Below are positions 9,068 through 64,000 of a stretch of 64,000 bases of DNA, one piece after another. The first letter of the stretch is position 1; each line of letters opens with the position of its first letter. Both the position numbers and the translations under genes were made by a program. Under the pieces are notes generated by a model that saw nothing but the letters and a program-made list of their open reading frames with translations, searched no databases and was not told where the DNA came from. Origin of the DNA: Candidatus Forterrea multitransposorum CG_2015-17_Forterrea_25_41 (GTDB lineage Archaea > Iainarchaeota > Iainarchaeia > Iainarchaeales > CSSED10-239); contig CP045477.1 of the NCBI GenBank assembly GCA_009392915.1, forward strand, positions 775,633 through 839,632, in the 5' to 3' direction.

Positions 9068-9071
9068 GTAT

Positions 9072-9866: not shown

Positions 9867-9970
9867 AAATTTTCTTTTATCCTATCCTTTATTAAATATT
9901 TTTTATCTATATATATTATAGCTAAACAAATATAAAAAGCTTTTTAAAATTAAAAAGGTTGGAAATACTT

Positions 9971-22851: not shown

Positions 22852-22986
22852 GGGTTAATCACCTTTTTTTAAATAAGAATTAAAAATGTATTTCTCTAAT
22901 ATATATTATATATATAAATATGTTTTTATATGTTGTTTCTAATTAAAATCAAAAGGTTTTTATTCTTTTTAAATAATGTTTTATGT

Positions 22987-24123
22987 ATGATTTCTTTAAA
23001 TTATAAATCTATCTCACCTTTAATTTCTGTAATTTTATTAATTGTTGTATCTATTGCTTTTATAGGTGTAATTACCAATTGGAGTAAAAGTTTTGTTATA
23101 ACGAATTCAGAAAAAGTAGATTTAATAAAAACAAATAATTCTTTAGATCAATTTATTGTTATAGATTCTTTTTATGATTCTGAAGAAAATTCAAGTATTA
23201 TTTTAAAAAATAACGCTAATAAAAATATTGTGCTTGAAAATTATAAATTTATAAACGGGGAAGGTGAGTTTTATAATCAAGAATTTGTAATTTCTGGAGA
23301 TGATGTTTTAAATAAAGGTAATTTATTAAAAATAGATTTAATTTGCTTTCCATCAAATAATTTAGATATTCTTTTTAAAACAACAGATGGAGATTATTTT
23401 AAAGTTAATTTAAAAAAATCTATTTTAAATATAAATTATTGTCATAATGATTTTAAAAATCAAAAAGTATATTCTTTTGAAGAATTGTTAGAAAAGAATC
23501 TTTTAGATGTAAATAGTTATTATTTAGATGTAAATGGAGATTTAAATTTACCTGAAATAGATGATTTTATTATAAAAACAAAATTTAAATTAGATTCAGT
23601 CTCTGGCTATCAAACATTAATTTCATATAAATATTCTGGTGTTTCAGGTTATGGTTCAGGACAAAGAGGTGGATTTAAATTTATGGTTCTTCCAAGCGGT
23701 AATTTTGCAATTGTAGGTAGTCAAAATGGTGGTTCTTTATGGTGGGGTTATTCTGGAGGAGATCCTGGACAAACACCCCCTTTAGTTTCAAATAAGTATT
23801 ATGATTTAATTTATCATAAAAATGGTCGTTTAATTAATTTGTGTCTTAAAGATAATATAGATTATAATTCTTTTTTTTGTAACGAACCTTGGTATTATCC
23901 TTATTATGATATTACAAACATCTATTATAGTGACAATCCAACATATAATTATAAATCAATAATTGGTGCTACAAATTATGGTTTAGAAAATACTTTTTTA
24001 GATTATTTTAATGGATCTGTTGAATATATTGAATTGTATGAATATTCTGAAGATAATAATATATCTTCAGTAAACAACCTTCCTTTAAATAATTATATTT
24101 TTAAAATAGATTTAACAAAATAA
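22987..24123 (+). CDS. Class III signal peptide (archaeal pilin-like) protein with LamG/ConA-like lectin domain
   Basis: N-terminus MISLNYKSISPLISVILLIVVSIAFIGVITNW (charged/Ser then hydrophobic helix). C-terminal region (...GGFKFMVLPSGNFAIVGSQNGGSLWWGYSGG...YDLIYHKNGRLINLCL) resembles the LamG beta-sandwich. Confidence 0.45.
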   Translation: MISLNYKSISPLISVILLIVVSIAFIGVITNWSKSFVITNSEKVDLIKTNNSLDQFIVIDSFYDSEENSSIILKNNANKNIVLENYKFINGEGEFYNQEFVISGDDVLNKGNLLKIDLICFPSNNLDILFKTTDGDYFKVNLKKSILNINYCHNDFKNQKVYSFEELLEKNLLDVNSYYLDVNGDLNLPEIDDFIIKTKFKLDSVSGYQTLISYKYSGVSGYGSGQRGGFKFMVLPSGNFAIVGSQNGGSLWWGYSGGDPGQTPPLVSNKYYDLIYHKNGRLINLCLKDNIDYNSFFCNEPWYYPYYDITNIYYSDNPTYNYKSIIGATNYGLENTFLDYFNGSVEYIELYEYSEDNNISSVNNLPLNNYIFKIDLTK

Positions 24124-25156: not shown

Positions 25157-27490
25157 ATGTTTGCTATTTCAAAAAAAGGAATAAGTCCTTTAATTGTAAC
25201 TATTTTAATTGTTGTTGTAATAGTCATTATTGTGTCTGTTTTATTATTGTGGGGTAAATCTTTCACTTTAGATAATTTATCTCTTTCTGAAAGAGTTTTT
25301 GAAAAATCTAGTCTTTCTGATTTTGTTTGGCAAGATAATTTATTTGAAAAAAATTTATTTATTAAAAATACAAATTCTAAATTAGGTGCGTCAATTATTG
25401 GTTATAAAATAAATAGTTCCTTAGATTATCCTTTTTTAAATGAATATAGATACTTAGAAACTGAAGTTTATTTGGGAAAAAACAGTATTGCAACAATTCC
25501 TTTAGTTTGTATTCCTGAGAAAAATTTTACAATAGAATTAATTACTTCCAAAGATGAGTATATTACTGTGCCTGTTACTTCAAAGTCTTTTGATGCAAGT
25601 GATTGTACTTTTAAAGGAGAAATTACAAATCCTTCTGAAGATTTTAGTATAAGGTCTGGAGATTCTATTTTGTTTGACTCTTTGGCATTAAATACTTCTG
25701 GGAATGAAACTTATTTATGGGTATCTGATAAAGATGGAACTTTAAGTACTGATAAAAATTTTACAATAAGTTCTTTATCTGTAAACAATCATTTAATTAC
25801 TTTAACAATCACAGATTTTAATTCAACTATTGAAAAATCTTTGTCTGTTGTGATTCATCCTCCTTTAAGTTTAAGTATTTTATCTCCAATTGATGATTCT
25901 GGTTTTTTAGTAAACACCTCTATTGATTTTAATTCAATTATTGATAATAATTTAGGTGATTATTCTTGTAATTGGCAATCAAATCTTGATGGTTTGTTAA
26001 GCACCAATTGTATTTTTAATTCTTCAAGTTTATCTGTGGGTAATCACACTTTAACTTTAAATGTAATTGATGATGTAGGAACTAGTAGTGTTACTTCTGA
26101 TATTTTAGTTAAGAATAGTTTTACACCAATCATTAGTTCTCCTTTAGAAGATTCTATTTTTGTAGTAGGAAATAACATAAATTTAATTGGTACAACAATT
26201 AATTCTTTTGGAACTTATACTTGTTCTTGGGATTCAAATATTAATGGAAGTTTAGGTACTGGTTGTAATTTAAATGTTGATGATCTAAACATAGGTGCTC
26301 ATGAAATAACTTTAAATATAACAGATGATTTAGAAACAAAAACTGCAGTAACAACTATTGTAATTAAAGATCATTTACTTCCAGAAATAGTATCTCCTAT
26401 TGCAAGTTCTACTTCAACAGAAGGAAATACAGTTAATTTTTTAGGGAGTGCAACTAATACATATGGAAGTTACACTTGTTCTTGGGATTCAAATCTTGAT
26501 GGAAATTTAGGTGTTGGTTGTGATATAGATGTTTCTGATTTAACTTTAGGAACTCATGAAATAACTTTAAGTGTAACTGATGATTTAGAAACTGTTTCAA
26601 TTTCTCAAATTAATTCTGTGATTGTTATTGTGTATGTTGATGATTTAATTAATTTAGTTTTCAGTGATAGTGTTACAGGTTATTCTTTTTCTGGTAGTAC
26701 TTATAATTATAATGATTTATTAATTTTAAATAGTTCTAATACTGTAACTGTTACTCCGACTGGGGCTGGAACAATAACTGTAAATGGTTCTACTGTTTCC
26801 TCAGGTTCTCCATCAAGTCCTATTGATTTAAGTGATGGTACTGAAAAAACAATTACCATAGAAGTTAGTGATGTTGATAAGTATTCTAAAACTTATACTT
26901 TGAGATTAACTAAAATAGTAACTACTGGTGGAACCATAACTAATGGTACAGGTTATAGAATTCATAAATTTACTTCAAATGGATCATTTACCTCTAACAT
27001 CCCATTAACTGCTGAACTTTTAGTTATTGGTGGAGGTGGAGGTGGTGGTGGATATGATGGTGGTGGTGGTCGTGCCGGAGCGTTATATTATAGTGCATCT
27101 TATTCAATACCTTCAGGTTCAACAAATGTTGTAATTGGTGCTGGAGGTCTAGGTGTAAATTATACAAAAGGATCAGCAGGTACTGCTTCTTCTTTTGGAG
27201 CAATATCTAAAGCTGGAGGTGCTGGTGGGGCTTTAACAAGTCCTAAATCTGGTGGTGCAGGTTGTGGTGGTGGAGGAAGTGCCTTTAATGCAGGACTGGG
27301 TTATGGTCTTGAAGGTCCTGGTTGTACATATAGTATTACAGGAACTCCTGTTGTATATGGTCTAGGAGGAAGAGGAGGTAATGGAGGGAGAACAGATGGT
27401 GCTACAAACACAGGATCAGCAGGTTGGGCTGGCGGAACTAGAGGTGGTCATGGTGCTGATGGAGTTGTAATTGTTAGAATAAATTCTTAG
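25157..27490 (+). CDS. Large (777 aa) class III signal peptide surface protein: tandem Ig/PKD-like repeats plus C-terminal glycine-rich domain
   Basis: N-terminus MFAISKKGISPLIVTILIVVVIVIIVSV. Three to four modules with Y(S/T)C(N/S)W(Q/D)SN(L/I)DG...GC...L(S/N)(V/I)G.H(E/T)(I/L)TL. C-terminal 180 aa is more than 40% Gly (GGGGGGGGYDGGGGRAGA...). Confidence 0.5.
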   Translation: MFAISKKGISPLIVTILIVVVIVIIVSVLLLWGKSFTLDNLSLSERVFEKSSLSDFVWQDNLFEKNLFIKNTNSKLGASIIGYKINSSLDYPFLNEYRYLETEVYLGKNSIATIPLVCIPEKNFTIELITSKDEYITVPVTSKSFDASDCTFKGEITNPSEDFSIRSGDSILFDSLALNTSGNETYLWVSDKDGTLSTDKNFTISSLSVNNHLITLTITDFNSTIEKSLSVVIHPPLSLSILSPIDDSGFLVNTSIDFNSIIDNNLGDYSCNWQSNLDGLLSTNCIFNSSSLSVGNHTLTLNVIDDVGTSSVTSDILVKNSFTPIISSPLEDSIFVVGNNINLIGTTINSFGTYTCSWDSNINGSLGTGCNLNVDDLNIGAHEITLNITDDLETKTAVTTIVIKDHLLPEIVSPIASSTSTEGNTVNFLGSATNTYGSYTCSWDSNLDGNLGVGCDIDVSDLTLGTHEITLSVTDDLETVSISQINSVIVIVYVDDLINLVFSDSVTGYSFSGSTYNYNDLLILNSSNTVTVTPTGAGTITVNGSTVSSGSPSSPIDLSDGTEKTITIEVSDVDKYSKTYTLRLTKIVTTGGTITNGTGYRIHKFTSNGSFTSNIPLTAELLVIGGGGGGGGYDGGGGRAGALYYSASYSIPSGSTNVVIGAGGLGVNYTKGSAGTASSFGAISKAGGAGGALTSPKSGGAGCGGGGSAFNAGLGYGLEGPGCTYSITGTPVVYGLGGRGGNGGRTDGATNTGSAGWAGGTRGGHGADGVVIVRINS
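25955..26640 (+). repeat. Intragenic tandem repeat, period about 250 bp, about 2.7 copies (encodes the repeated Ig/PKD-like modules)
   Basis: Near-identical nucleotide blocks beginning tattcttgtaattggcaatcaaatcttgatgg (about 25960), tatacttgttcttgggattcaaatattaatgg (about 26215) and tacacttgttcttgggattcaaatcttgatgg (about 26468). Confidence 0.6.
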
Positions 27491-30390: not shown

Positions 30391-30822
30391 TTATTTTTTA
30401 AGTGTTTTAAGTATTAGATAAAGTATAACTAACCCCATTGCAAACCAAAAGAGTATGTGTGCTATTTTTGAAACACTTAAGCTTATCTTTTCTGCAAGTA
30501 AAACTAAAACTATTCTTAAAAAGTTAGCTATCCATAGCAAAAGAACACTCAAAAGTATCCACTTAATTTTACTATTTTTATTTAATGTTATTTTTGATGA
30601 GATTATTATTCCTAGATAAACAGAAATGCTAATTACTCCGCTGCATATTGGTACAAAAATAAAAGGTTCATAATTTAAGAAGTCTCCAAAAATACTTCTT
30701 ATTAAATATTCCCATAGATTAATCAATGGAGTTGCAATTGTTTTAAGAAATATAAAACTTAATAAAGTGTATATTATTGTAAAATAAATAATGAAATTAA
30801 TTGTTTTTTTATCTAGGTGCAT
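30391..30822 (-). CDS. Mini exosortase/archaeosortase-family membrane protein (143 aa)
   Basis: Four TM helices. Candidate active-site Cys in FIFVPICSGV and Arg in WIANFLRIVLVLL about 42 residues apart, matching the Cys...aNxlRv spacing of the exosortase/archaeosortase core. Confidence 0.4.
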   Translation of the reverse strand: MHLDKKTINFIIYFTIIYTLLSFIFLKTIATPLINLWEYLIRSIFGDFLNYEPFIFVPICSGVISISVYLGIIISSKITLNKNSKIKWILLSVLLLWIANFLRIVLVLLAEKISLSVSKIAHILFWFAMGLVILYLILKTLKK

Positions 30823-43127: not shown

Positions 43128-43829
43128 TTATCCTCTGAATAAAAATAATTTTAGATACCCAATATATGGTATTCTTAATATTTTTTTACCCATTAAGTTT
43201 TCAACATTAATTGGATAAACATTTAAACAACCATTCACAATATAGTTTCCTGAAATTGCACAATCTTGATCAATAATATAATTTGTTTCTCCATTATCTC
43301 CTTTGGTTAAAACATATTTTCCATCATTTGCATTAATAATTAAAACAACTCTATGAATAATATCTCTGCCAGTAAGATTTGATTTATAGACTACTACTGA
43401 ATTATTTTTTTCAATAGCGTCTTTAATTTCAATAATTTGATTATTAATTTCTATTGTTTTAACTTCATTGTTTCCATAACTATTTAATTTATATTCCATT
43501 TTTGCAAATTCACTTAAATTTTTAGTTGAAATATTTTCATCAATAGTAATTATTTCTGATTTTAAATTTTTAGCAGAAGATATAACCATAATATCTCCTC
43601 TATAAAAACTAGGCTCCATTGATCCAGAAACAACTGTTGCAAGAGGAAGTGAAGTTCCTAAAATTAATCCTAATAATTTAAAAATAATAAATGCTAAAAT
43701 AAGAGAATAGACTAAATAAAAAATCCAATACATTATTTTTGTATCTAAACTTTTAGGTTTTCCAAAAAGTCTTAAAAGAAGTGTATCTATGTAATAGTAT
43801 GGATCTAAATATTTTAATCTATCTTTCAT
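43128..43829 (-). CDS. Signal peptidase I (archaeal Sec11/S26 type)
   Basis: N-terminal TM, then VVSGSMEPSFYRGDIMV (S26 catalytic Ser box). Confidence 0.65.
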   Translation of the reverse strand: MKDRLKYLDPYYYIDTLLLRLFGKPKSLDTKIMYWIFYLVYSLILAFIIFKLLGLILGTSLPLATVVSGSMEPSFYRGDIMVISSAKNLKSEIITIDENISTKNLSEFAKMEYKLNSYGNNEVKTIEINNQIIEIKDAIEKNNSVVVYKSNLTGRDIIHRVVLIINANDGKYVLTKGDNGETNYIIDQDCAISGNYIVNGCLNVYPINVENLMGKKILRIPYIGYLKLFLFRG

Positions 43830-58198: not shown

Positions 58199-59050
58199 AT
58201 GGATTTGAAAAAAGAATTTGGAATAACTCTTTCAGAAAAACAAAAGTTTTTCGTAGATTATGTTATTTATGGTTCTGTAGGTTCAATTGTTTTCTTTGTT
58301 TTATTAATGAATACTAAATTTTTAGTTTTTTCAATTTTTCCTTTACTTGCAGCTGTAGGTATTGCTGCAAGAATATACACTGCAAGAATTAAATCTTATG
58401 AAAGAAATCTATATGTGTTTTTAGATGATCTAAAAGATCTTCTTCAAGGTGGTATGAATATTGTAACTGCTATTGAAGTTGCATCTAGACACGATTATGG
58501 TCATTTAAATGCACCTATTAAAAGAATTGCAGCACAAATAAAGATTGGTGTTCCTTTTGATGTTGCTTTAAATGATGTTTTTGGAAATATTGATAGTGCA
58601 GTATTTGCACAAATTACACAAATCATTTCTGAAACTACAAAAGTTGGTGGAAATATAATTAAAATTTTCGCATCAATTTCAGATTATGTTAAAACAATTA
58701 ATGATATGGTAGAAGAAAGAAAATCTAAAACTTTTTCTACAGTTTTTTCAAGTTACTTTATGTTTTTTGTTTTTATTGCTATTATTTTAATTATACAAAT
58801 AGTTTTTTTGCCAATGCTTAGTGGTAGTACAGTTTCATTAACTGGAGAAGGAGCAACAAATGCATCTTCAATGTCTGATGTTAATTTTAATAAATACTTT
58901 TTATATTTAATTGTTATTCAAGGTTTATTTGCAGGTCCAACAATTGGTTTAATTTCCGAAAATAATTTTGTTGCAGGGATACGGCATTCAATTATTCTTG
59001 TAGGGGTTTCTGTTCCTATATATGTAATTGTTTCAGCAATTTTCTTATAA
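58199..59050 (+). CDS. Type II secretion system F-domain membrane protein (TadB/TadC/FlaJ-like pilus platform), copy 2
   Basis: T2SSF-like domain (NIVTAIEVASRHDYGHLNAPIKRIAAQIKIGVPFDVALNDVFG) and 3 TM helices. Lies 7 nt downstream of copy 1, in a different frame. Confidence 0.55.
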   Translation: MDLKKEFGITLSEKQKFFVDYVIYGSVGSIVFFVLLMNTKFLVFSIFPLLAAVGIAARIYTARIKSYERNLYVFLDDLKDLLQGGMNIVTAIEVASRHDYGHLNAPIKRIAAQIKIGVPFDVALNDVFGNIDSAVFAQITQIISETTKVGGNIIKIFASISDYVKTINDMVEERKSKTFSTVFSSYFMFFVFIAIILIIQIVFLPMLSGSTVSLTGEGATNASSMSDVNFNKYFLYLIVIQGLFAGPTIGLISENNFVAGIRHSIILVGVSVPIYVIVSAIFL

Positions 59051-59147: not shown

Positions 59148-59609
59148 ATGAAAAATAAAAAAGCATTATCTCCATTGATTGCAACCATTCTTTTAGTTGC
59201 TGTTGCTTTATCTTTAGCAGGGATATTATATTCTTGGTCTTCTCAAAATTTTAGAGATACCACAACAAGTGTTTCAGATACTTCTGCAGAATGGATTGAT
59301 TGTAGTAATGTTAATATATATATAGATTCTGGCTGTTCTTATACATCTTTAGATGGATTTGGAACTTTAATATTATTTGATAGATCTACAGTTGAAATTG
59401 ATCAAAATATTGTTTTAACAATTATTGATGCAGATGATGAGATTGCAAGTGTTGAAATTGAACCAAATTTTACTGGTAATGCAATGTCATTAGCTTCAAC
59501 TTTAAATGCTATTGATGGTATTAAAGGTCTTGCAACTCCTCTTAAGAGAGTACAAGCACATGTTAAAAATTGTCCTGATAGAGTATCATATATCTCTAGA
59601 TGTAGTTAA
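59148..59609 (+). CDS. Archaeal type IV pilin-like protein (class III signal peptide), paralogue 1
   Basis: MKNKKALSPLIATILLVAVALSLAGILYSW, four Cys (two predicted disulfides), ends RCS. Confidence 0.65.
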   Translation: MKNKKALSPLIATILLVAVALSLAGILYSWSSQNFRDTTTSVSDTSAEWIDCSNVNIYIDSGCSYTSLDGFGTLILFDRSTVEIDQNIVLTIIDADDEIASVEIEPNFTGNAMSLASTLNAIDGIKGLATPLKRVQAHVKNCPDRVSYISRCS

Positions 59610-59652: not shown

Positions 59653-60132
59653 ATGAAAATAAAAAAAGCAATATCTCCATTAATCGCAACTATTTTATTG
59701 ATTGTTGTTGCTGTAGCATTAATTGCAATCGTTGTTGCTTGGGGAAAATCTTTCACAACAGACAGTCTTTCTGATGCAACAGGTGTAGTTGACACAAGTT
59801 GTATGGGTGCTGCAATCCAATTATCAAATTGTATGATTAACGATTCAAATAATTTAGTATTTTACGTTAAAAACACTGGTACAGTAGATATTTCTGCTGG
59901 AGATGATTTAATATTAAATATTAGAAACACATCAGATGGTAATTCAACATTAAATTTACCTTTATCTGAAACTGCAACAACAGAATGGGCAGGTTTAACT
60001 CCTGGACAAACTGCATTAATTACAGTTGATGATGCAAACTTCCCTGGAGCTGCAACAGGAAGATACGATGTAGAAGTAATATCTAACTATTGTGCTTCAG
60101 ATGCAGTTGCACAAATCAAAAACTGTCAATAG
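59653..60132 (+). CDS. Archaeal type IV pilin-like protein, paralogue 2
   Basis: MKIKKAISPLIATILLIVVAVALIAIVVAW, four Cys, ends NCQ. AGGTGA ribosome-binding site upstream. Confidence 0.65.
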   Translation: MKIKKAISPLIATILLIVVAVALIAIVVAWGKSFTTDSLSDATGVVDTSCMGAAIQLSNCMINDSNNLVFYVKNTGTVDISAGDDLILNIRNTSDGNSTLNLPLSETATTEWAGLTPGQTALITVDDANFPGAATGRYDVEVISNYCASDAVAQIKNCQ

Positions 60133-60222
60133 ATGTATATAATAAAAAGAGACTTTCTTTATAATTATAAAGAAAGTTTTTCTTTTTTTATTTTTTTTTA
60201 AATTATAAATTTTGAAATTTTT

Positions 60223-60666
60223 ATGAAAAAAGCAATAAGCCCTATAATCGCAACTATTTTATTAATTGTAGTATCTTTAGCATTAGTTGCTATACTTTTA
60301 TCTTGGGGTTCTGATTTTGTTACAAAAAATACAAGTGAAGCTGATAACGCTGTAAATAAAGAATGTGTTGGAGCATACATTGATTTTGTTTCTTGTATTT
60401 ATAATGTTTCAGAAGAAACAATTACTGCAAGTTTTATTAATTCAGGTAATATTGATTTTGATAGTGATTATAATTTTAATGTAACAATTATTGATAATGC
60501 AAAACAAGTAGATTTCTCTAACAATGATGTTTTAGATTCAAATGGTCTTTCAAAAGGTGAATCAAACTATTTTATTATTGAAGATTATAATGGTGTACGT
60601 CCAATAAAAGTTCAATTAAGAAGCACTCAATGTCCTTTAAGTTATTGGGAAACTAAATGTTCTTAA
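60223..60666 (+). CDS. Archaeal type IV pilin-like protein, paralogue 3
   Basis: MKKAISPIIATILLIVVSLALVAILLSW, four Cys, ends KCS. Confidence 0.65.
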   Translation: MKKAISPIIATILLIVVSLALVAILLSWGSDFVTKNTSEADNAVNKECVGAYIDFVSCIYNVSEETITASFINSGNIDFDSDYNFNVTIIDNAKQVDFSNNDVLDSNGLSKGESNYFIIEDYNGVRPIKVQLRSTQCPLSYWETKCS

Positions 60667-61160
60667 ATTCTTTCTAATTTAATTTTTGTAATTTTATCTT
60701 CTTGATCAATTATTGCAATTACATATTTAGTTTTTATGCTATTTGCAAGCCTTTCAGATTTTATGACTTTTGTCATTTCGTCTTTATGTGTTTTTTTAAC
60801 ATCTACCACATATTTTGTATGTTGATGTGTTTTACTATTTCCTTCATAAACTCTAAAATCAAATCCAAAAATTGCACCATCTTTAACAATAAATCCTTTT
60901 TCTCTAAAGTCTTTATAAACTAAATATTTATCTGTAAATTCTTTGATATATTTTTTAATATGTTCTTTTAATTGAGTTATTGTTATTTCTTTTTCATCTT
61001 TTGTTATTTTTATTTTTTTAGTTTCTAAAAGAAAATAACTTTCAAATAAATCTAAAATTAATAAATCTTCTTTTTTAGTTCCAAATCCTTTTTCAATAAG
61101 TCTTGATTTAAGATTATTTGATGTAACTATACATCTTTTTCCATCAATATAAGCATTCAT
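60663..61160 (-). CDS. endA: tRNA-splicing endonuclease (short, homotetramer-type EndA)
   Basis: Catalytic C-domain KGFIVKDGAIFGFDFRVYEGNSKTHQHTKYVV (EndA Y...H...K pattern). 165 aa. Confidence 0.7.
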   Translation of the reverse strand: MNAYIDGKRCIVTSNNLKSRLIEKGFGTKKEDLLILDLFESYFLLETKKIKITKDEKEITITQLKEHIKKYIKEFTDKYLVYKDFREKGFIVKDGAIFGFDFRVYEGNSKTHQHTKYVVDVKKTHKDEMTKVIKSERLANSIKTKYVIAIIDQEDKITKIKLERI

Positions 61161-61177: not shown

Positions 61178-61471
61178 TTATTTATAAAGTGTAAACATGT
61201 TTCTGTCTATGCCATAAAATAAACCTATTCTAACCCCAGCATCTATCCATCCATAAGCATAAGAAAAAGATGCTAGTGCTCTTTTAAAATCTTTATTCTT
61301 TTGAAAAACTTTTCCATCTTCAAGATAGTTAGTTGCCATTTGGAAATAATCTTCTGCCATGTCTTTTAAGAAAGATTCGTTTTCTATGTTTATTTTTATT
61401 GTCTTTATTGCTTTTTCTAAAAGTTCTCTATATTTTTCAGAATATTCTTCAATCTCTGTATTCATCAACAC
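61178..61471 (-). CDS. DUF357-like small archaeal protein
   Basis: C-terminal SFSYAYGWIDAGVRIGL resembles the conserved GW(L/I)DAG segment of the family. Overlaps the dph5 3' end. Confidence 0.35.
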   Translation of the reverse strand: MLMNTEIEEYSEKYRELLEKAIKTIKINIENESFLKDMAEDYFQMATNYLEDGKVFQKNKDFKRALASFSYAYGWIDAGVRIGLFYGIDRNMFTLYK

Positions 61472-62180
61472 TCACTTTTTCAAATTCATTTAAATCTGCA
61501 CAAATAACTAAACTTTGAGGTTTAGGGTATTCTTTTAATTTTTTATAATCCTTAAAATTAAAAGTAATTATTTTTTCATTAACAGAACCCATACCAGAAA
61601 GCATAGCACATGTTTTATTTTCTAATTTTTTATCAGTATCAATTTCTTCTAATAATTCACAAGCTTCTTTTGCTGACATAAATCTATTTTCTATAACTTT
61701 AATATCAAGAAGGCATAATGTGTGTGCATTTATTTTTAAGTTATCTAAAATTAGATCATAGAAGCTTTTAGGAAAATAATTTTTTTCAGGATATACAATA
61801 GATACTGTTTTTCCAAATTTATATTCATAAAGTCCAAATGACCCTCTATAGTTAAAAATTGAAATACCTGCAATAATTTTGTATTCTATATCTCTTTTTT
61901 TTAGTTCCTCTAAAAGAGAGTAATGTGTGGTTGCAGATAATGGGTTTCCAATAACTAAAAGACAAGAATCATTCTTTAAATATTCTTGTTTTTGTTCAAG
62001 TTCAGTTCTGTTTAATTGAATAATATCTTTTCCAAGAGTTTCTTTTAGTTCTTTTATTTCTCCAAAAGATAAAATATTTGTATAATTATCAATATATACT
62101 TCTTTAGATTCTAAAATTGCATTTTTTGCTTCAAGACTTAATTGTTTTGTTGTAAGTCCAATTCCAATAATATAAAACAT
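61449..62180 (-). CDS. dph5: Diphthine synthase (Dph5)
   Basis: MFYIIGIGL...VYIDNYTN...LLVIGNPLSATTHYSLLEEL...IIAGISIF matches the tetrapyrrole-methylase-fold diphthine synthase. Confidence 0.8.
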   Translation of the reverse strand: MFYIIGIGLTTKQLSLEAKNAILESKEVYIDNYTNILSFGEIKELKETLGKDIIQLNRTELEQKQEYLKNDSCLLVIGNPLSATTHYSLLEELKKRDIEYKIIAGISIFNYRGSFGLYEYKFGKTVSIVYPEKNYFPKSFYDLILDNLKINAHTLCLLDIKVIENRFMSAKEACELLEEIDTDKKLENKTCAMLSGMGSVNEKIITFNFKDYKKLKEYPKPQSLVICADLNEFEKVSVDEYRD

Positions 62181-62181
62181 A

Positions 62182-62541
62182 TTAATACTTAACTCCTATT
62201 TCTATATATATTTCTTTATTAGAACTATTAATATATTTAATGTTTTGAGAAATTATTCTGTATTTATTATTTTTTTTATTAATTTCTTTTTTTTTACTAT
62301 TAATTATTATATATCCTTCTGTTGTTGGGAATAATAATTTATAATTTTCTTCTAATTGTTCAATAGAATCTATTTCTAGTTTTTGAGAAGTTATTAAAAG
62401 ATCAGATATTCTGTTATTAATTAATATTTTTTCTGCACTTTCAATATTTGGTACTTGTAAAATAAACCCCATTATTCCAACAAATAATAACGCAATGATT
62501 GCATCTATTGTAAACATTATTCCTTTATTCACAAAAACCAA
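62182..62541 (-). CDS. Small pilin-like protein (class III-like signal peptide), 4th of an overlapping set
   Basis: MVFVNKGIMFTIDAIIALLFVGIMGFIL: charged N-region, Gly, then a hydrophobic helix. Confidence 0.35.
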   Translation of the reverse strand: MVFVNKGIMFTIDAIIALLFVGIMGFILQVPNIESAEKILINNRISDLLITSQKLEIDSIEQLEENYKLLFPTTEGYIIINSKKKEINKKNNKYRIISQNIKYINSSNKEIYIEIGVKY

Positions 62542-62929
62542 CCTCTAAAATCGAAAATTTATTTTTATAAATTATTCCTCTATTATGTTTATTTTTTATT
62601 TCACCATTTTTTTTATATATCTGGTCATTATTTATTTTAATTTCACAAAAGTAAGGCTTAATTTTTTCTAAATTTTTTATTTCTATTTCATTAGCAAGAC
62701 ATTTTTTTGTTTGTTGATTAATTTTTCCTAGATAATTACAATCTAATAAATATATATCAATTAAAAAATCATTTTTTATAATTTCTATTTCTGTTTCTTT
62801 AAAAGAAATATTTTCTTTATAGCTGATGATAATTTTTGTTTCAATAGATAATATAATTATTATAAGAATTATAAATATTAAAACATCAAGTATCATTACT
62901 TGTGCTTTTTTTTGCTCTACAAGCATCAT
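62525..62929 (-). CDS. Small pilin-like protein, 3rd of the set
   Basis: MMLVEQKKAQVMILDVLIFIILIIIILSI. Confidence 0.35.
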   Translation of the reverse strand: MMLVEQKKAQVMILDVLIFIILIIIILSIETKIIISYKENISFKETEIEIIKNDFLIDIYLLDCNYLGKINQQTKKCLANEIEIKNLEKIKPYFCEIKINNDQIYKKNGEIKNKHNRGIIYKNKFSILEVGFCE

Positions 62930-63122
62930 AGACTAATACTCCATTATTTTTAGTTAACATTTTTTCTTTAATAAAACAGATTTCCTGATTAATATTTTTA
63001 AAATTAATTTTTTCTTTTAAAGTTTCTTTAAAATAAATATTTGTGTTTATAAATAAATAAAGAGTTATAAGTATTATTAAAAAAGCAAATATAAATTCAA
63101 GAGAAACTTGTCCTTTTAACAA
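62886..63122 (-). CDS. Small pilin-like protein with G|QVSLE(+5) motif, 2nd of the set
   Basis: MLKGQVSLEFIFAFLIILITLYLF: Gly at -1 and Glu at +5, as in bacterial type IV pilins and pseudopilins. Confidence 0.4.
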   Translation of the reverse strand: MLKGQVSLEFIFAFLIILITLYLFINTNIYFKETLKEKINFKNINQEICFIKEKMLTKNNGVLVYDACRAKKSTSNDT

Positions 63123-63610
63123 AAGACCACCTCTCTTATAAAATAATTTTTAGGAAAATTAAATGTTTCTTGATAGTTTCTGTTTTTTACAATAAATAAT
63201 AATTGTTTATTATAAAAAATCCCTCTTGTAATATATGCTTCTTTAATTAATATTCTTTCAGATGGTCTGTAAATTATCACTCTTATTATTTCTGTTGTAT
63301 CTAATAAAGTAATTTTGTTTTTTTCTTTAGAAATAGTGTTTTGAATATAGAAATTATTTTTATTTCCATATTCAAAAATATTGGAGCTTATTTTTTCTTT
63401 AACAACTAAAGGATTGCTTTCACAATCATTAAGTGTATTTTTAATGGTTTTTTCAAAGTTGTAATAAATATTTTCTTTTCTAGTTTCAATCTGTTTAATG
63501 ATTATAAGATCAGTGGTTTCATTTAGGTTATTTTCGAGAGTTATAAATAAAAAAAAGAGCATAAATAGAAGAATAGTTATAGAGGCAAAGGCTTTTTTAG
63601 ACACTGCCAT
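63116..63610 (-). CDS. Small pilin-like / N-terminally anchored protein, 1st of the set
   Basis: MAVSKKAFASITILLFMLFFLFITL. The start codon directly abuts the 24-bp palindrome. Confidence 0.35.
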   Translation of the reverse strand: MAVSKKAFASITILLFMLFFLFITLENNLNETTDLIIIKQIETRKENIYYNFEKTIKNTLNDCESNPLVVKEKISSNIFEYGNKNNFYIQNTISKEKNKITLLDTTEIIRVIIYRPSERILIKEAYITRGIFYNKQLLFIVKNRNYQETFNFPKNYFIREVVFC

Positions 63611-63634
63611 ATATTATGTATTAATACATAATAT
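63611..63634. promoter_or_regulatory. Perfect 24-bp palindrome ATATTATGTATTAATACATAATAT immediately upstream of the minus-strand pilin-like operon start
   Basis: Exact reverse-complement symmetry, verified base by base. Lies between a TATA-like box (gaattataaa on the minus strand) and the start codon. Confidence 0.45.
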
Positions 63635-64000
63635 TTATAATTCTTCTTAATTTTTTTAATTTTTATTTAATTATTATAACTTCTTCTAAAATCAATTTCA
63701 CTTAAAACATCTATTAGCATATGACTGTGACTTTTCTTCATTTGTCCAATTTCCATTCTTTTAAGTAATGTGTTTTTAATATTGTTTAAAAACTTTGTTT
63801 CAAAATTTGAAAGTTCTCTTCTATATATTATTTGCATCTTTTAATCACCTTTTTTTATTTATTTAAAAATTTACTTTACAAAATAACAAGGGATTTATAG
63901 AATATATCTATTTTCAAGCAGAGGGTAGCTGGCCGAGAAAAGACTATTTTTTAAAATTCGAAGAATAATCTTTTTAAACTAAACCCTACATTATACTTTT

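Follow-up and report, generated by a model that had tools for sequence, protein, structure and literature searches.

Four small genes with pilin-like N-termini beside a type IV filament locus in Candidatus Forterrea multitransposorum

We analysed a 64,000-nucleotide stretch of the Candidatus Forterrea multitransposorum genome (contig CP045477.1, positions 775,633 to 839,632; hereafter the window), in which four small, overlapping open reading frames (ORF1 to ORF4, minus strand) lie beside genes for pilins and platform proteins. We propose that ORF1-ORF4 encode minor pilin-like subunits of this adjacent type IV filament system, as a lineage-specific set, and assign this reading a probability of about 0.6. 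By their sequences, ORF2 is a borderline member of the DUF361/PF04021 family, and ORF1, ORF3 and ORF4 represent unrecognised, lineage-restricted families. The locus is an ordinary kind of type IV filament system, made of mostly unrecognised protein families.

Four overlapping genes conserved across the lineage

All four consecutive minus-strand ORFs of 78-164 amino acids (aa) described in the original prediction are present: ORF1 (63116-63610; 164 aa, ATG start), ORF2 (62886-63122; 78 aa, TTG start), ORF3 (62525-62929; 134 aa, ATG start) and ORF4 (62182-62532; 116 aa, GTG start). For ORF4, most public gene calls use the GTG at 62532, which has a better Shine-Dalgarno motif than an alternative TTG at 62541 (119 aa). 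Two of the distances first reported needed correction. The overlaps, given as 3-40 nucleotides (nt), measure 7, 44 and 17 nt (the last being 8 nt with the ORF4 GTG start), and the gap between the ORF4 stop and dph5 is 1 nt rather than 2 nt.

Every relative examined, down to about 40% identity, shares the gene order ORF0-ORF1-ORF2-ORF3-ORF4-dph5-DUF357-endA, met convergently by three pilin and two T2SSF genes (ORF0 is a small gene directly upstream of ORF1, described below). These relatives comprise metagenome contigs, some so short that they cover part of the array only, and seven of the seven species-level genomes returned from a scan of 185,579 GTDB species representatives; they are labelled Candidatus Iainarchaeum, Diapherotrites or 'ainarchaeum' and belong to the DPANN phylum Iainarchaeota. 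The tblastn search gave no match for ORF2 in relatives L019 and L020 or for ORF3 in L019, and ORFs with matching N-termini can be read there. Against relatives with 83-90% protein identity, the ratio of nonsynonymous to synonymous substitution rates (dN/dS) is 0.11-0.14 for ORF1, 0.16-0.18 for ORF2, 0.18 for ORF3 and 0.16-0.18 for ORF4, with 0.12-0.14 for dph5 and 0.28-0.40 for endA in the same comparison. The four ORFs are therefore real, conserved genes under purifying selection. The caution that they might be unconserved, spurious ORFs of AT-rich DNA, a possibility raised at the outset, is set aside by the synteny and by dN/dS values of 0.11-0.18.

Homologues in public data (ORF1, 14; ORF3, 7; ORF4, 22 clusters) extend down to 50%, 55% and 43% identity, respectively, and none contains a Pfam domain. 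Across the lineage ORF1-ORF4 diverge as fast as pilins, at 30-40% identity where dph5 retains 61%, which fits surface-exposed proteins; in L020, for example, identity is 34% for ORF1, 34% for ORF3 and 40% for ORF4, against the 61% of dph5.

The N-termini resemble archaeal class III signals

Each protein opens, as originally described, with a short charged segment, a Gly or Ala and a hydrophobic helix, here 18-21 residues long. With a slash at the putative cleavage site, the N-termini read MAVSKKA/FASITILLFMLFFLFITL (ORF1), MLKG/QVSLEFIFAFLIILITLYLF (ORF2), MMLVEQKKA/QVMILDVLIFIILIIIILSI (ORF3) and M(V)NKG/IMFTIDAIIALLFVGIMGFIL (ORF4). Within each family (6-23 sequences, including relatives down to 30-40% identity) the Gly or Ala at -1 is invariant, usually preceded by Lys or Arg at -2, and all four proteins show the general archaeal class III pattern, with [K/R]-[G/A/S] directly before a hydrophobic helix some 20 residues long. 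The alignments give the patterns [KQ]K[AG]/F[AFV]SI for ORF1, [KR][GA]/x[VLI]S[LI]E[FL] for ORF2 (Glu+5 invariant), [KN][AG]/Q[VI]xIx[DE] for ORF3 (Gln+1 and the acidic +6 invariant) and [KN]G/phi-x-phi-x-phi-[DE] for ORF4. In all four families, few parts of the protein are as well conserved as this motif. For ORF1, residues K6, A7, F8, A9, S10 and I11 are invariant in the alignment of homologues and precede a helix of 18 hydrophobic residues; in the ORF4 family (23 sequences, 19-61% identity), the -1 Gly and one Asp further in are the sole invariant columns.

An acidic residue inside the hydrophobic segment is kept in three of the four families, as Glu+5 in ORF2 (invariant in 10 orthologues) and as Asp or Glu+6 in ORF3 and ORF4; ORF1 has none. 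A conserved charge within the hydrophobic helix is typical of pilins, unlike Sec signal peptides. The original prediction also hinged on a recognisable prepilin-type motif, for which we used a home-made class III rule ([KR][GA] in the first 16 residues and, after it, a run of 20 hydrophobic residues in which only +5 and +6 may be charged). Applied to the 98 six-frame ORFs of at least 60 aa, the rule picks seven, namely ORF2, ORF3, ORF4, the three plus-strand pilins and a 777-aa candidate adhesin with a pilin-type N-terminus, and misses ORF1 solely through a Glu at +19. Since only 7 of 98 ORFs are picked, the pattern is no by-product of AT-rich sequence.

ORF2 matches PF04021 (Class_IIIsignal/DUF361) with 24.5 bits (gathering threshold 23.7; E = 2.6e-5). 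Its G/QVSLE motif, with Glu at +5, is present as first reported and had been taken as the hallmark of bacterial pilins and pseudopilins, a label that we revise. In Methanococcus maripaludis, the signals of the DUF361 (Epd) pilins processed by EppA end in Gly, with conserved Gln+1 and Glu+5 and sites KGQV, KGQI, KGQL and RAQI (PMC3875500, PMC4371748). The ORF2 signal matches these sites, and none of the four proteins matches the bacterial N-methylation-domain models of NCBIfam and Pfam at E <= 1, so Glu+5 is better read as an archaeal Epd-type mark, the DUF361/PF04021 signal. Of the two residues associated with substrates of the peptidase EppA, Gln+1 and Glu+5, ORF2 has both in this genome and ORF3 has Gln+1 with an acidic +6, while ORF1 and ORF4 lack Gln+1; a distant member of the ORF4 family begins MNKGQVSIEW.

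Beyond the N-termini, ORF1, ORF3 and ORF4 are new families, recognisable by the motif alone; ORF3 matches nothing in Pfam or NCBIfam. A search of 1.84 billion representatives with the ORF4 profile returned 22 clusters only, all of about 116-131 aa and with no link found to annotated families, and PDB sequence searches with ORF2, the ORF4 profile and ORF0 gave no match. We considered paralogy among ORF1-ORF4 and rejected it: hhalign similarity is weak (52% probability for ORF2-ORF4, 27% for ORF3-ORF4) and confined to the N-terminal helices; the globular parts show no similarity. These N-terminal links, like the MNKGQVSIEW start, count in favour of the pilin reading. Cysteines are conserved in three of the proteins (two in ORF1, Cys63 and Cys164; two in ORF2; four in ORF3), which suggests extracellular disulfides, and the absence of both ORF1 cysteines together in L010 fits such a bond.

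Some public annotation hides these features. The 148-aa calls of ORF1 (NCBI; P0006, P0012) start at Met17 and so lose the KKA/FASI motif (window 63563-63610), and one 123-aa call of ORF3 (L002) likewise loses its diagnostic N-terminus. Because the upstream residues are conserved, the long forms are favoured, and the short calls are annotation errors that conceal the pilin-like nature of the proteins.

Structure models

In the type IV pilin fold, an antiparallel beta-sheet or beta-sandwich packs against the C-terminal half of a long N-terminal helix. Structure prediction, one of the checks first envisaged, gave a mixed outcome. The AlphaFold2 model of ORF1 (8 sequences) was poor, with a predicted local distance difference test (pLDDT) score of 53, and was not used. 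That of ORF4 was confident (pLDDT 89.9), with helices at 3-25, 30-52 and 57-67, a Pro-containing break between the first two and then four strands; a modelled N-terminal helix of about 50 residues with a small sheet is compatible with a pilin. Comparison of the ORF4 model with solved structures retrieved no solved pilins, a result to which we return below.

The adjacent filament locus

Convergent with the four-ORF cassette, at a distance of 1.5-6 kb, lie plus-strand pilin and platform genes. Three paralogous pilin genes of the UpsA/arch_flag_Nterm type (59148-59609, 59653-60132 and 60223-60666) all exceed the TIGR02537 cut-off; their NCBIfam matches to UpsA are weak, and hhalign relates them to one another with probabilities of 97.6-99.7% and shows no similarity between them and the cassette ORFs. 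Upstream of these, two genes for TadC/FlaJ-type platform proteins (57037 (or 57316)-58191 and 58199-59050) match PF00482 (T2SSF) with 37.9 and 58.9 bits. Of the features that mark system 1/clade 1 of the type IV filaments, the two T2SSF genes and several pilin-like genes are present, with ATPase and EppA genes absent from the window.

Downstream of the cassette on the minus strand, the original identifications of dph5 (diphthine synthase, 61449-62180), the DUF357 gene (61178-61465, overlapping the dph5 end) and endA (tRNA-intron lyase, 60663-61160) are borne out by the curated models TIGR00522 (181 bits), PF04010 (92 bits) and TIGR00324 (86.7 bits). The stop codons of endA and of the third pilin gene overlap convergently by 4 nt at 60663-60666, with no intergenic space for a terminator, an arrangement kept in L001, L004, L010 and L013. 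Just after the pilin gene at 59653-60132, a perfect 26-bp palindrome (60152-60177, ACTTTCTTTATAATTATAAAGAAAGT) is followed by a long T-run, a terminator-like arrangement that separates the second pilin gene from the third.

The window has a G+C content of about 20-30%, and no tRNA or Rfam family matched anywhere in it. Among its translations we recognised what we take to be Orc1/Cdc6, both DNA polymerase D subunits, EF-1alpha, Cdc48 and Pelota, that is, archaeal informational genes.

A model for ORF1-ORF4 and the evidence against it

From these observations we infer cleavage, filament incorporation, minor rather than major status and the extent of the transcript. ORF1-ORF4 would insert into the membrane with the short basic N-terminus on the cytoplasmic side and be cut by a prepilin peptidase after the invariant Gly or Ala. 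The N-terminal helix, with its Glu+5 or Asp/Glu+6, would then dock into the helical core of the filament, where the proteins would be minor subunits of low abundance, with a part in priming, capping or decorating a pilus made mainly of the neighbouring pilins. Their fast-evolving, partly disulfide-bonded C-terminal domains would point outward. A TATA-like box 23-30 nt ahead of ORF1 would drive expression, with ORF1 leaderless; overlapping stop and start codons, preceded by Shine-Dalgarno motifs, would then pass translation along the genes, giving the four proteins in roughly equal amounts, and the transcript would continue into dph5 and DUF357.

Several results weigh against this proposal. Among the ORFs of the window there is neither a prepilin peptidase (GxGD motif) nor an assembly ATPase, and none of the pilin models of Pfam and NCBIfam matches ORF1, ORF3 or ORF4. 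ORF2 clears the PF04021 threshold by just 0.8 bits; five of eight of its orthologues match the model, all below threshold (12-22.5 bits), and its +1 residue varies among orthologues (Q/V/M/N/I), so that Gln+1 is not kept. Two lesions in L018 (a 671-kb contig, Ca. Iainarchaeum bin_363) count in the same direction; there, ORF1 has an in-frame TAG at 9068-9070 (TAT in the window) and ORF4 a 1-nt deletion within the FTID codons at about 9905-9925; these reflect either decay in that lineage or an assembly or consensus error. What stands of the original call of a minor-pilin set is that the genes are genuine, have class III N-termini and lie beside a pilin and platform cluster, and that minor pilins are the best reading of them, with the limit that the threshold of a curated family is passed by ORF2 only.

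Alternative explanations

The same N-termini could belong to single-pass membrane proteins (N-terminus in, C-terminus out) that are pilin-like at the N-terminus only and are neither cleaved nor polymerised. These could be assembly, stator or anchor parts of a pilus, like ArlF and ArlG, or small extracellular proteins with sensor or binding domains. We regard this as unlikely, though deserving of real weight, and it is the ORF4 fold result, chiefly, that keeps it alive. The missing pilin family match for three of the four ORFs and the missing peptidase in the window also suit it, as does a neighbouring small class III protein in L010 that matches ArlG weakly (E = 5e-4), which indicates that pilin-like N-termini occur on parts other than the filament itself. 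An uncleaved anchor would hardly account for an invariant -1 Gly or Ala, a basic -2 and an acidic +5 or +6, however, and the score of ORF2 above the PF04021 threshold and the parallel between four co-translated small pilin-like proteins and known minor-pilin sets speak for pilins. A more mundane possibility is that the four are ordinary Sec-dependent secreted or signal-anchored proteins unrelated to pili, which lie near the pilin genes by chance, through the conserved gene order of a small genome. Indeed, the unrelated genes dph5, DUF357, endA and DRG are also collinear in this block, which makes linkage alone weak evidence, and from its translation we take the gene at 43128-43829 to encode a signal peptidase I-like protein. 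We nevertheless consider this very improbable, given that the hydrophobic stretch spans 18-21 residues and begins 4-9 residues from the N-terminus, that no conserved small-x-small cleavage region follows it, that conservation in each protein is highest at the N-terminal residues, the reverse of what Sec signal peptides show, and that ORF2 matches PF04021.

The remaining alternative keeps the pilins and changes their role: one ORF, most plausibly ORF2, would be the major subunit of a separate thin, Epd/Tad-like filament, with the other three as its minor pilins, so that the locus would serve a second filament type. ORF2 is sized like the major pilin of M. maripaludis (74 aa) and has the same KGQV/Glu+5 signal (PMC3875500, PMC4371748). 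The locus also contains two sharply different signals, KA/ISPLIAT and KG/QVSLEF, with no hhalign similarity between the two groups, and in Methanococcus two signal types have distinct peptidases (PMC4371748). Against this, ORF2 is an internal gene of a translationally coupled array, starts with TTG and has a 44-nt overlap, all of which suggests amounts equal to those of its neighbours and not the excess of a major subunit; with no second set of ATPase and platform genes found in the window, we judge a second filament improbable. The proposal that ORF1-ORF4 are minor subunits of the adjacent filament remains our preferred reading.

Expression signals and the dph5 junction

Shine-Dalgarno-like motifs precede ORF2 (strong, GAGGTGG before the TTG), ORF3, ORF4, dph5 and DUF357; none precedes ORF1. 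Across the window, such motifs are found at 12 of 22 short-gap genes versus 8 of 38 long-gap genes, and 14 of 29 occurrences of TTWTAWAT start at -40 to -22 of a start codon, versus 7.5 expected. The first genes of arrays mostly lack a Shine-Dalgarno motif and have a TTWTAWAT box some 23-40 nt upstream, and internal genes often have GGTG or GAGG. This distribution suggests a genome-wide habit of leaderless first cistrons and Shine-Dalgarno-led internal ones. The archaeal TATA box usually lies about 25 nt before the transcription start. A TATA-box-like element (TTATAAAT, 63633-63640, minus strand) lies at this usual spacing (-30 to -23 of the ORF1 ATG), and together with the missing Shine-Dalgarno motif it points to a leaderless start at ORF1. 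Translational coupling through the ORF1-ORF4 array is likewise probable from its layout; the ORF3/ORF2 overlap is kept at 38-47 nt in L004, L010 and L013, the relatives whose coordinates were read.

In the window and in L004, L010 and L013, ORF4 and dph5 are separated by 0-1 nt or overlap by 1 nt; in L012 the gap is 21 nt. So tight a junction makes read-through into dph5 likely, and co-transcription of the cassette with dph5 is plausible; endA has its own TTATAAAT at -27 and may be expressed separately. We think that the junction with dph5-DUF357-endA, though conserved, reflects a compact, reduced genome. We see no support for a functional link; across the lineage, collinearity extends over the whole region, DRG and other housekeeping genes included.

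ORF0 and the upstream palindrome

Directly upstream of ORF1 in all relatives lies ORF0 (63667-63837, minus strand; 56 aa), which encodes a conserved, seemingly cytoplasmic protein of unrecognised family, with no membrane segment and its own Shine-Dalgarno motif (AGGTGA). ORF0 is the most conserved gene of the block, with dN/dS of 0.017 (versus L006/L008) and 54-98% identity in aligned relatives, and searches of Pfam, NCBIfam and the PDB gave no significant match for it. A possible role is that of a small regulator of the cassette. A ribbon-helix-helix regulator, considered after reading a strand-helix-helix order by eye, is tentative at best: no family or PDB match supports it, and the first helix seems too long.

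Between the TATA-like box and ORF1 lies the 24-bp palindrome that the original prediction placed directly upstream of the first start codon; it is perfect (63611-63634, ATATTATGTATTAATACATAATAT), shares 2 nt with the TATA-like box and extends from there to -1 of the ATG. An archaeal repressor would sit between the TATA box and the start, where this palindrome lies. In 100 first-order Markov simulations of the window, 0.05 perfect palindromes with arms of at least 12 nt were expected per window; two are observed, the other (60152-60177) being unrelated in sequence. The palindrome is perfect only in near-identical contigs (L001-L003) and in L008. L006, L007 and L009, which are just as close, retain 10 of 12 pairs, with two uncompensated substitutions in different pairs; L004 has a different, imperfect inverted repeat at the site (12 of 15 pairs), and L010 and L013 have essentially none. 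As RNA, it would form a hairpin of about -8 kcal/mol (z = -1.68), and 13 of 200 shuffles fold at least as well. A conserved operator or RNA hairpin is ruled out by this non-conservation and the unremarkable folding score. We conclude that the palindrome is a recent, strain-level feature of an AT-rich promoter and not a conserved regulatory element, although some factor may bind it.

A bolder reading would make the cassette and dph5-DUF357-endA a functional coupled unit, in which ORF0, as a new small regulator, and the operator-like palindrome couple attachment filaments to maintenance of the translation apparatus in a host-dependent DPANN archaeon. We find this very doubtful. In a lesser form, ORF1, ORF3 and ORF4 might be three new minor-pilin families that build a DPANN-specific tip complex for host attachment.

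Further pilin-related genes and significance

Other genes with pilin-like features were seen outside the cassette. A few kb upstream of it, L010 (2763-3898) and L004 (2409-3525) have two further small genes beside PCNA, encoding 65 and 136 aa with weak PF04021 matches in L010, and 63 and 131 aa with no match on record in L004; a 172-173-aa membrane protein like Peptidase_M50B/DUF3267 follows. Together they may form a further pilin set that is accompanied by a peptidase-like gene. In the window, two plus-strand genes (25157-27490 and 22930-24123) encode large proteins with pilin-type N-termini (KKG/ISPLIVTIL and ...KS/ISPLISVIL), the 777-aa one with PKD, cadherin-like and glycine-rich domains, and both are candidate pilus-tip adhesins. 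A 143-aa multi-pass membrane protein (30391-30822, minus strand) has no Pfam match and a Cys...Arg...His pattern that we take to be reminiscent of archaeosortase/exosortase.

The DPANN archaea live in attachment to other cells, a contact for which type IV filaments are prime candidates, and most DPANN surface proteins are annotated 'hypothetical'. The locus adds one borderline PF04021 member and three unrecognised pilin-like families, and places Epd-type and UpsA-type signals, which may depend on one prepilin peptidase or on two, side by side in a small genome. Current understanding is unchallenged; the gain lies in better annotation and in targets for attachment studies in Iainarchaeota.

Comparison with known systems

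The Ups and Aap loci of Sulfolobales (UpsA/UpsB, AapA/AapB) resemble this locus in their KA/ISP-type signal, in the weak UpsA matches of the plus-strand pilins and in being compact, with platform protein(s). They differ in holding two pilins, one platform protein and an ATPase together, and no four-gene DUF361-like set. The ArlF/ArlG (FlaF/FlaG) archaellum stator proteins are similarly small, with an archaellin-like N-terminal helix and an extracellular domain, and are encoded with filament genes; ORF1-ORF4, however, give no significant match to them, and we know of no need in ArlF or ArlG for a conserved Gly-1/acidic+5 motif.

With the minor pilins and pseudopilins of bacteria (FimU-PilVWX, GspHIJK, ComGD-GG) the cassette shares four small pilin-like proteins in one tight operon by the machinery, a -1 Gly with Glu+5 in one member and an analogous proposed role in priming or at the tip. 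The likeness ends there: ComGE and ComGF matches are at noise level (E 0.03-0.04), no sequence or fold similarity was detected, and the basic -2 and the Gln, Ile or Phe at +1 follow archaeal rules.

The cassette can also be compared with the Epd pili of M. maripaludis, with their DUF361 pilins EpdA-E, in which the small pilins have 67-76 aa and the minor pilins EpdA-C 130-156 aa, and whose peptidase EppA requires Gln+1 (PMC3875500, PMC4371748). Related clade-1/system-1 loci, with two TadC genes and at least five minor pilins, are reported in some DPANN (PMC4858521; bioRxiv 10.64898/2026.04.22.720090), and the DPANN subsystem 4A may also have two platform genes (bioRxiv 10.64898/2026.04.22.720090). 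Unlike these systems, only ORF2 reaches the PF04021 threshold, with ORF3 and ORF4 acidic at +6 and ORF1 at neither position; the signal peptides are very short (4-9 residues); the locus has no EppA, DUF2341 adhesin or FleN/MinD gene; the adjacent pilins are of the UpsA/arch_flag_Nterm type and not the Epd type; and the globular parts of the cassette proteins lack detectable similarity to annotated families. Like the Epd system, the cassette presents a class III signal ending in Gly or Ala with Gln+1 and Glu+5 (KG/QVSLE in ORF2), a mix of pilin-like proteins of about 70 and 130-160 aa and several putative minor pilins in one operon, beside two TadC-type platform genes, and as in that system the ATPase and the major pilin may be encoded elsewhere in the genome.

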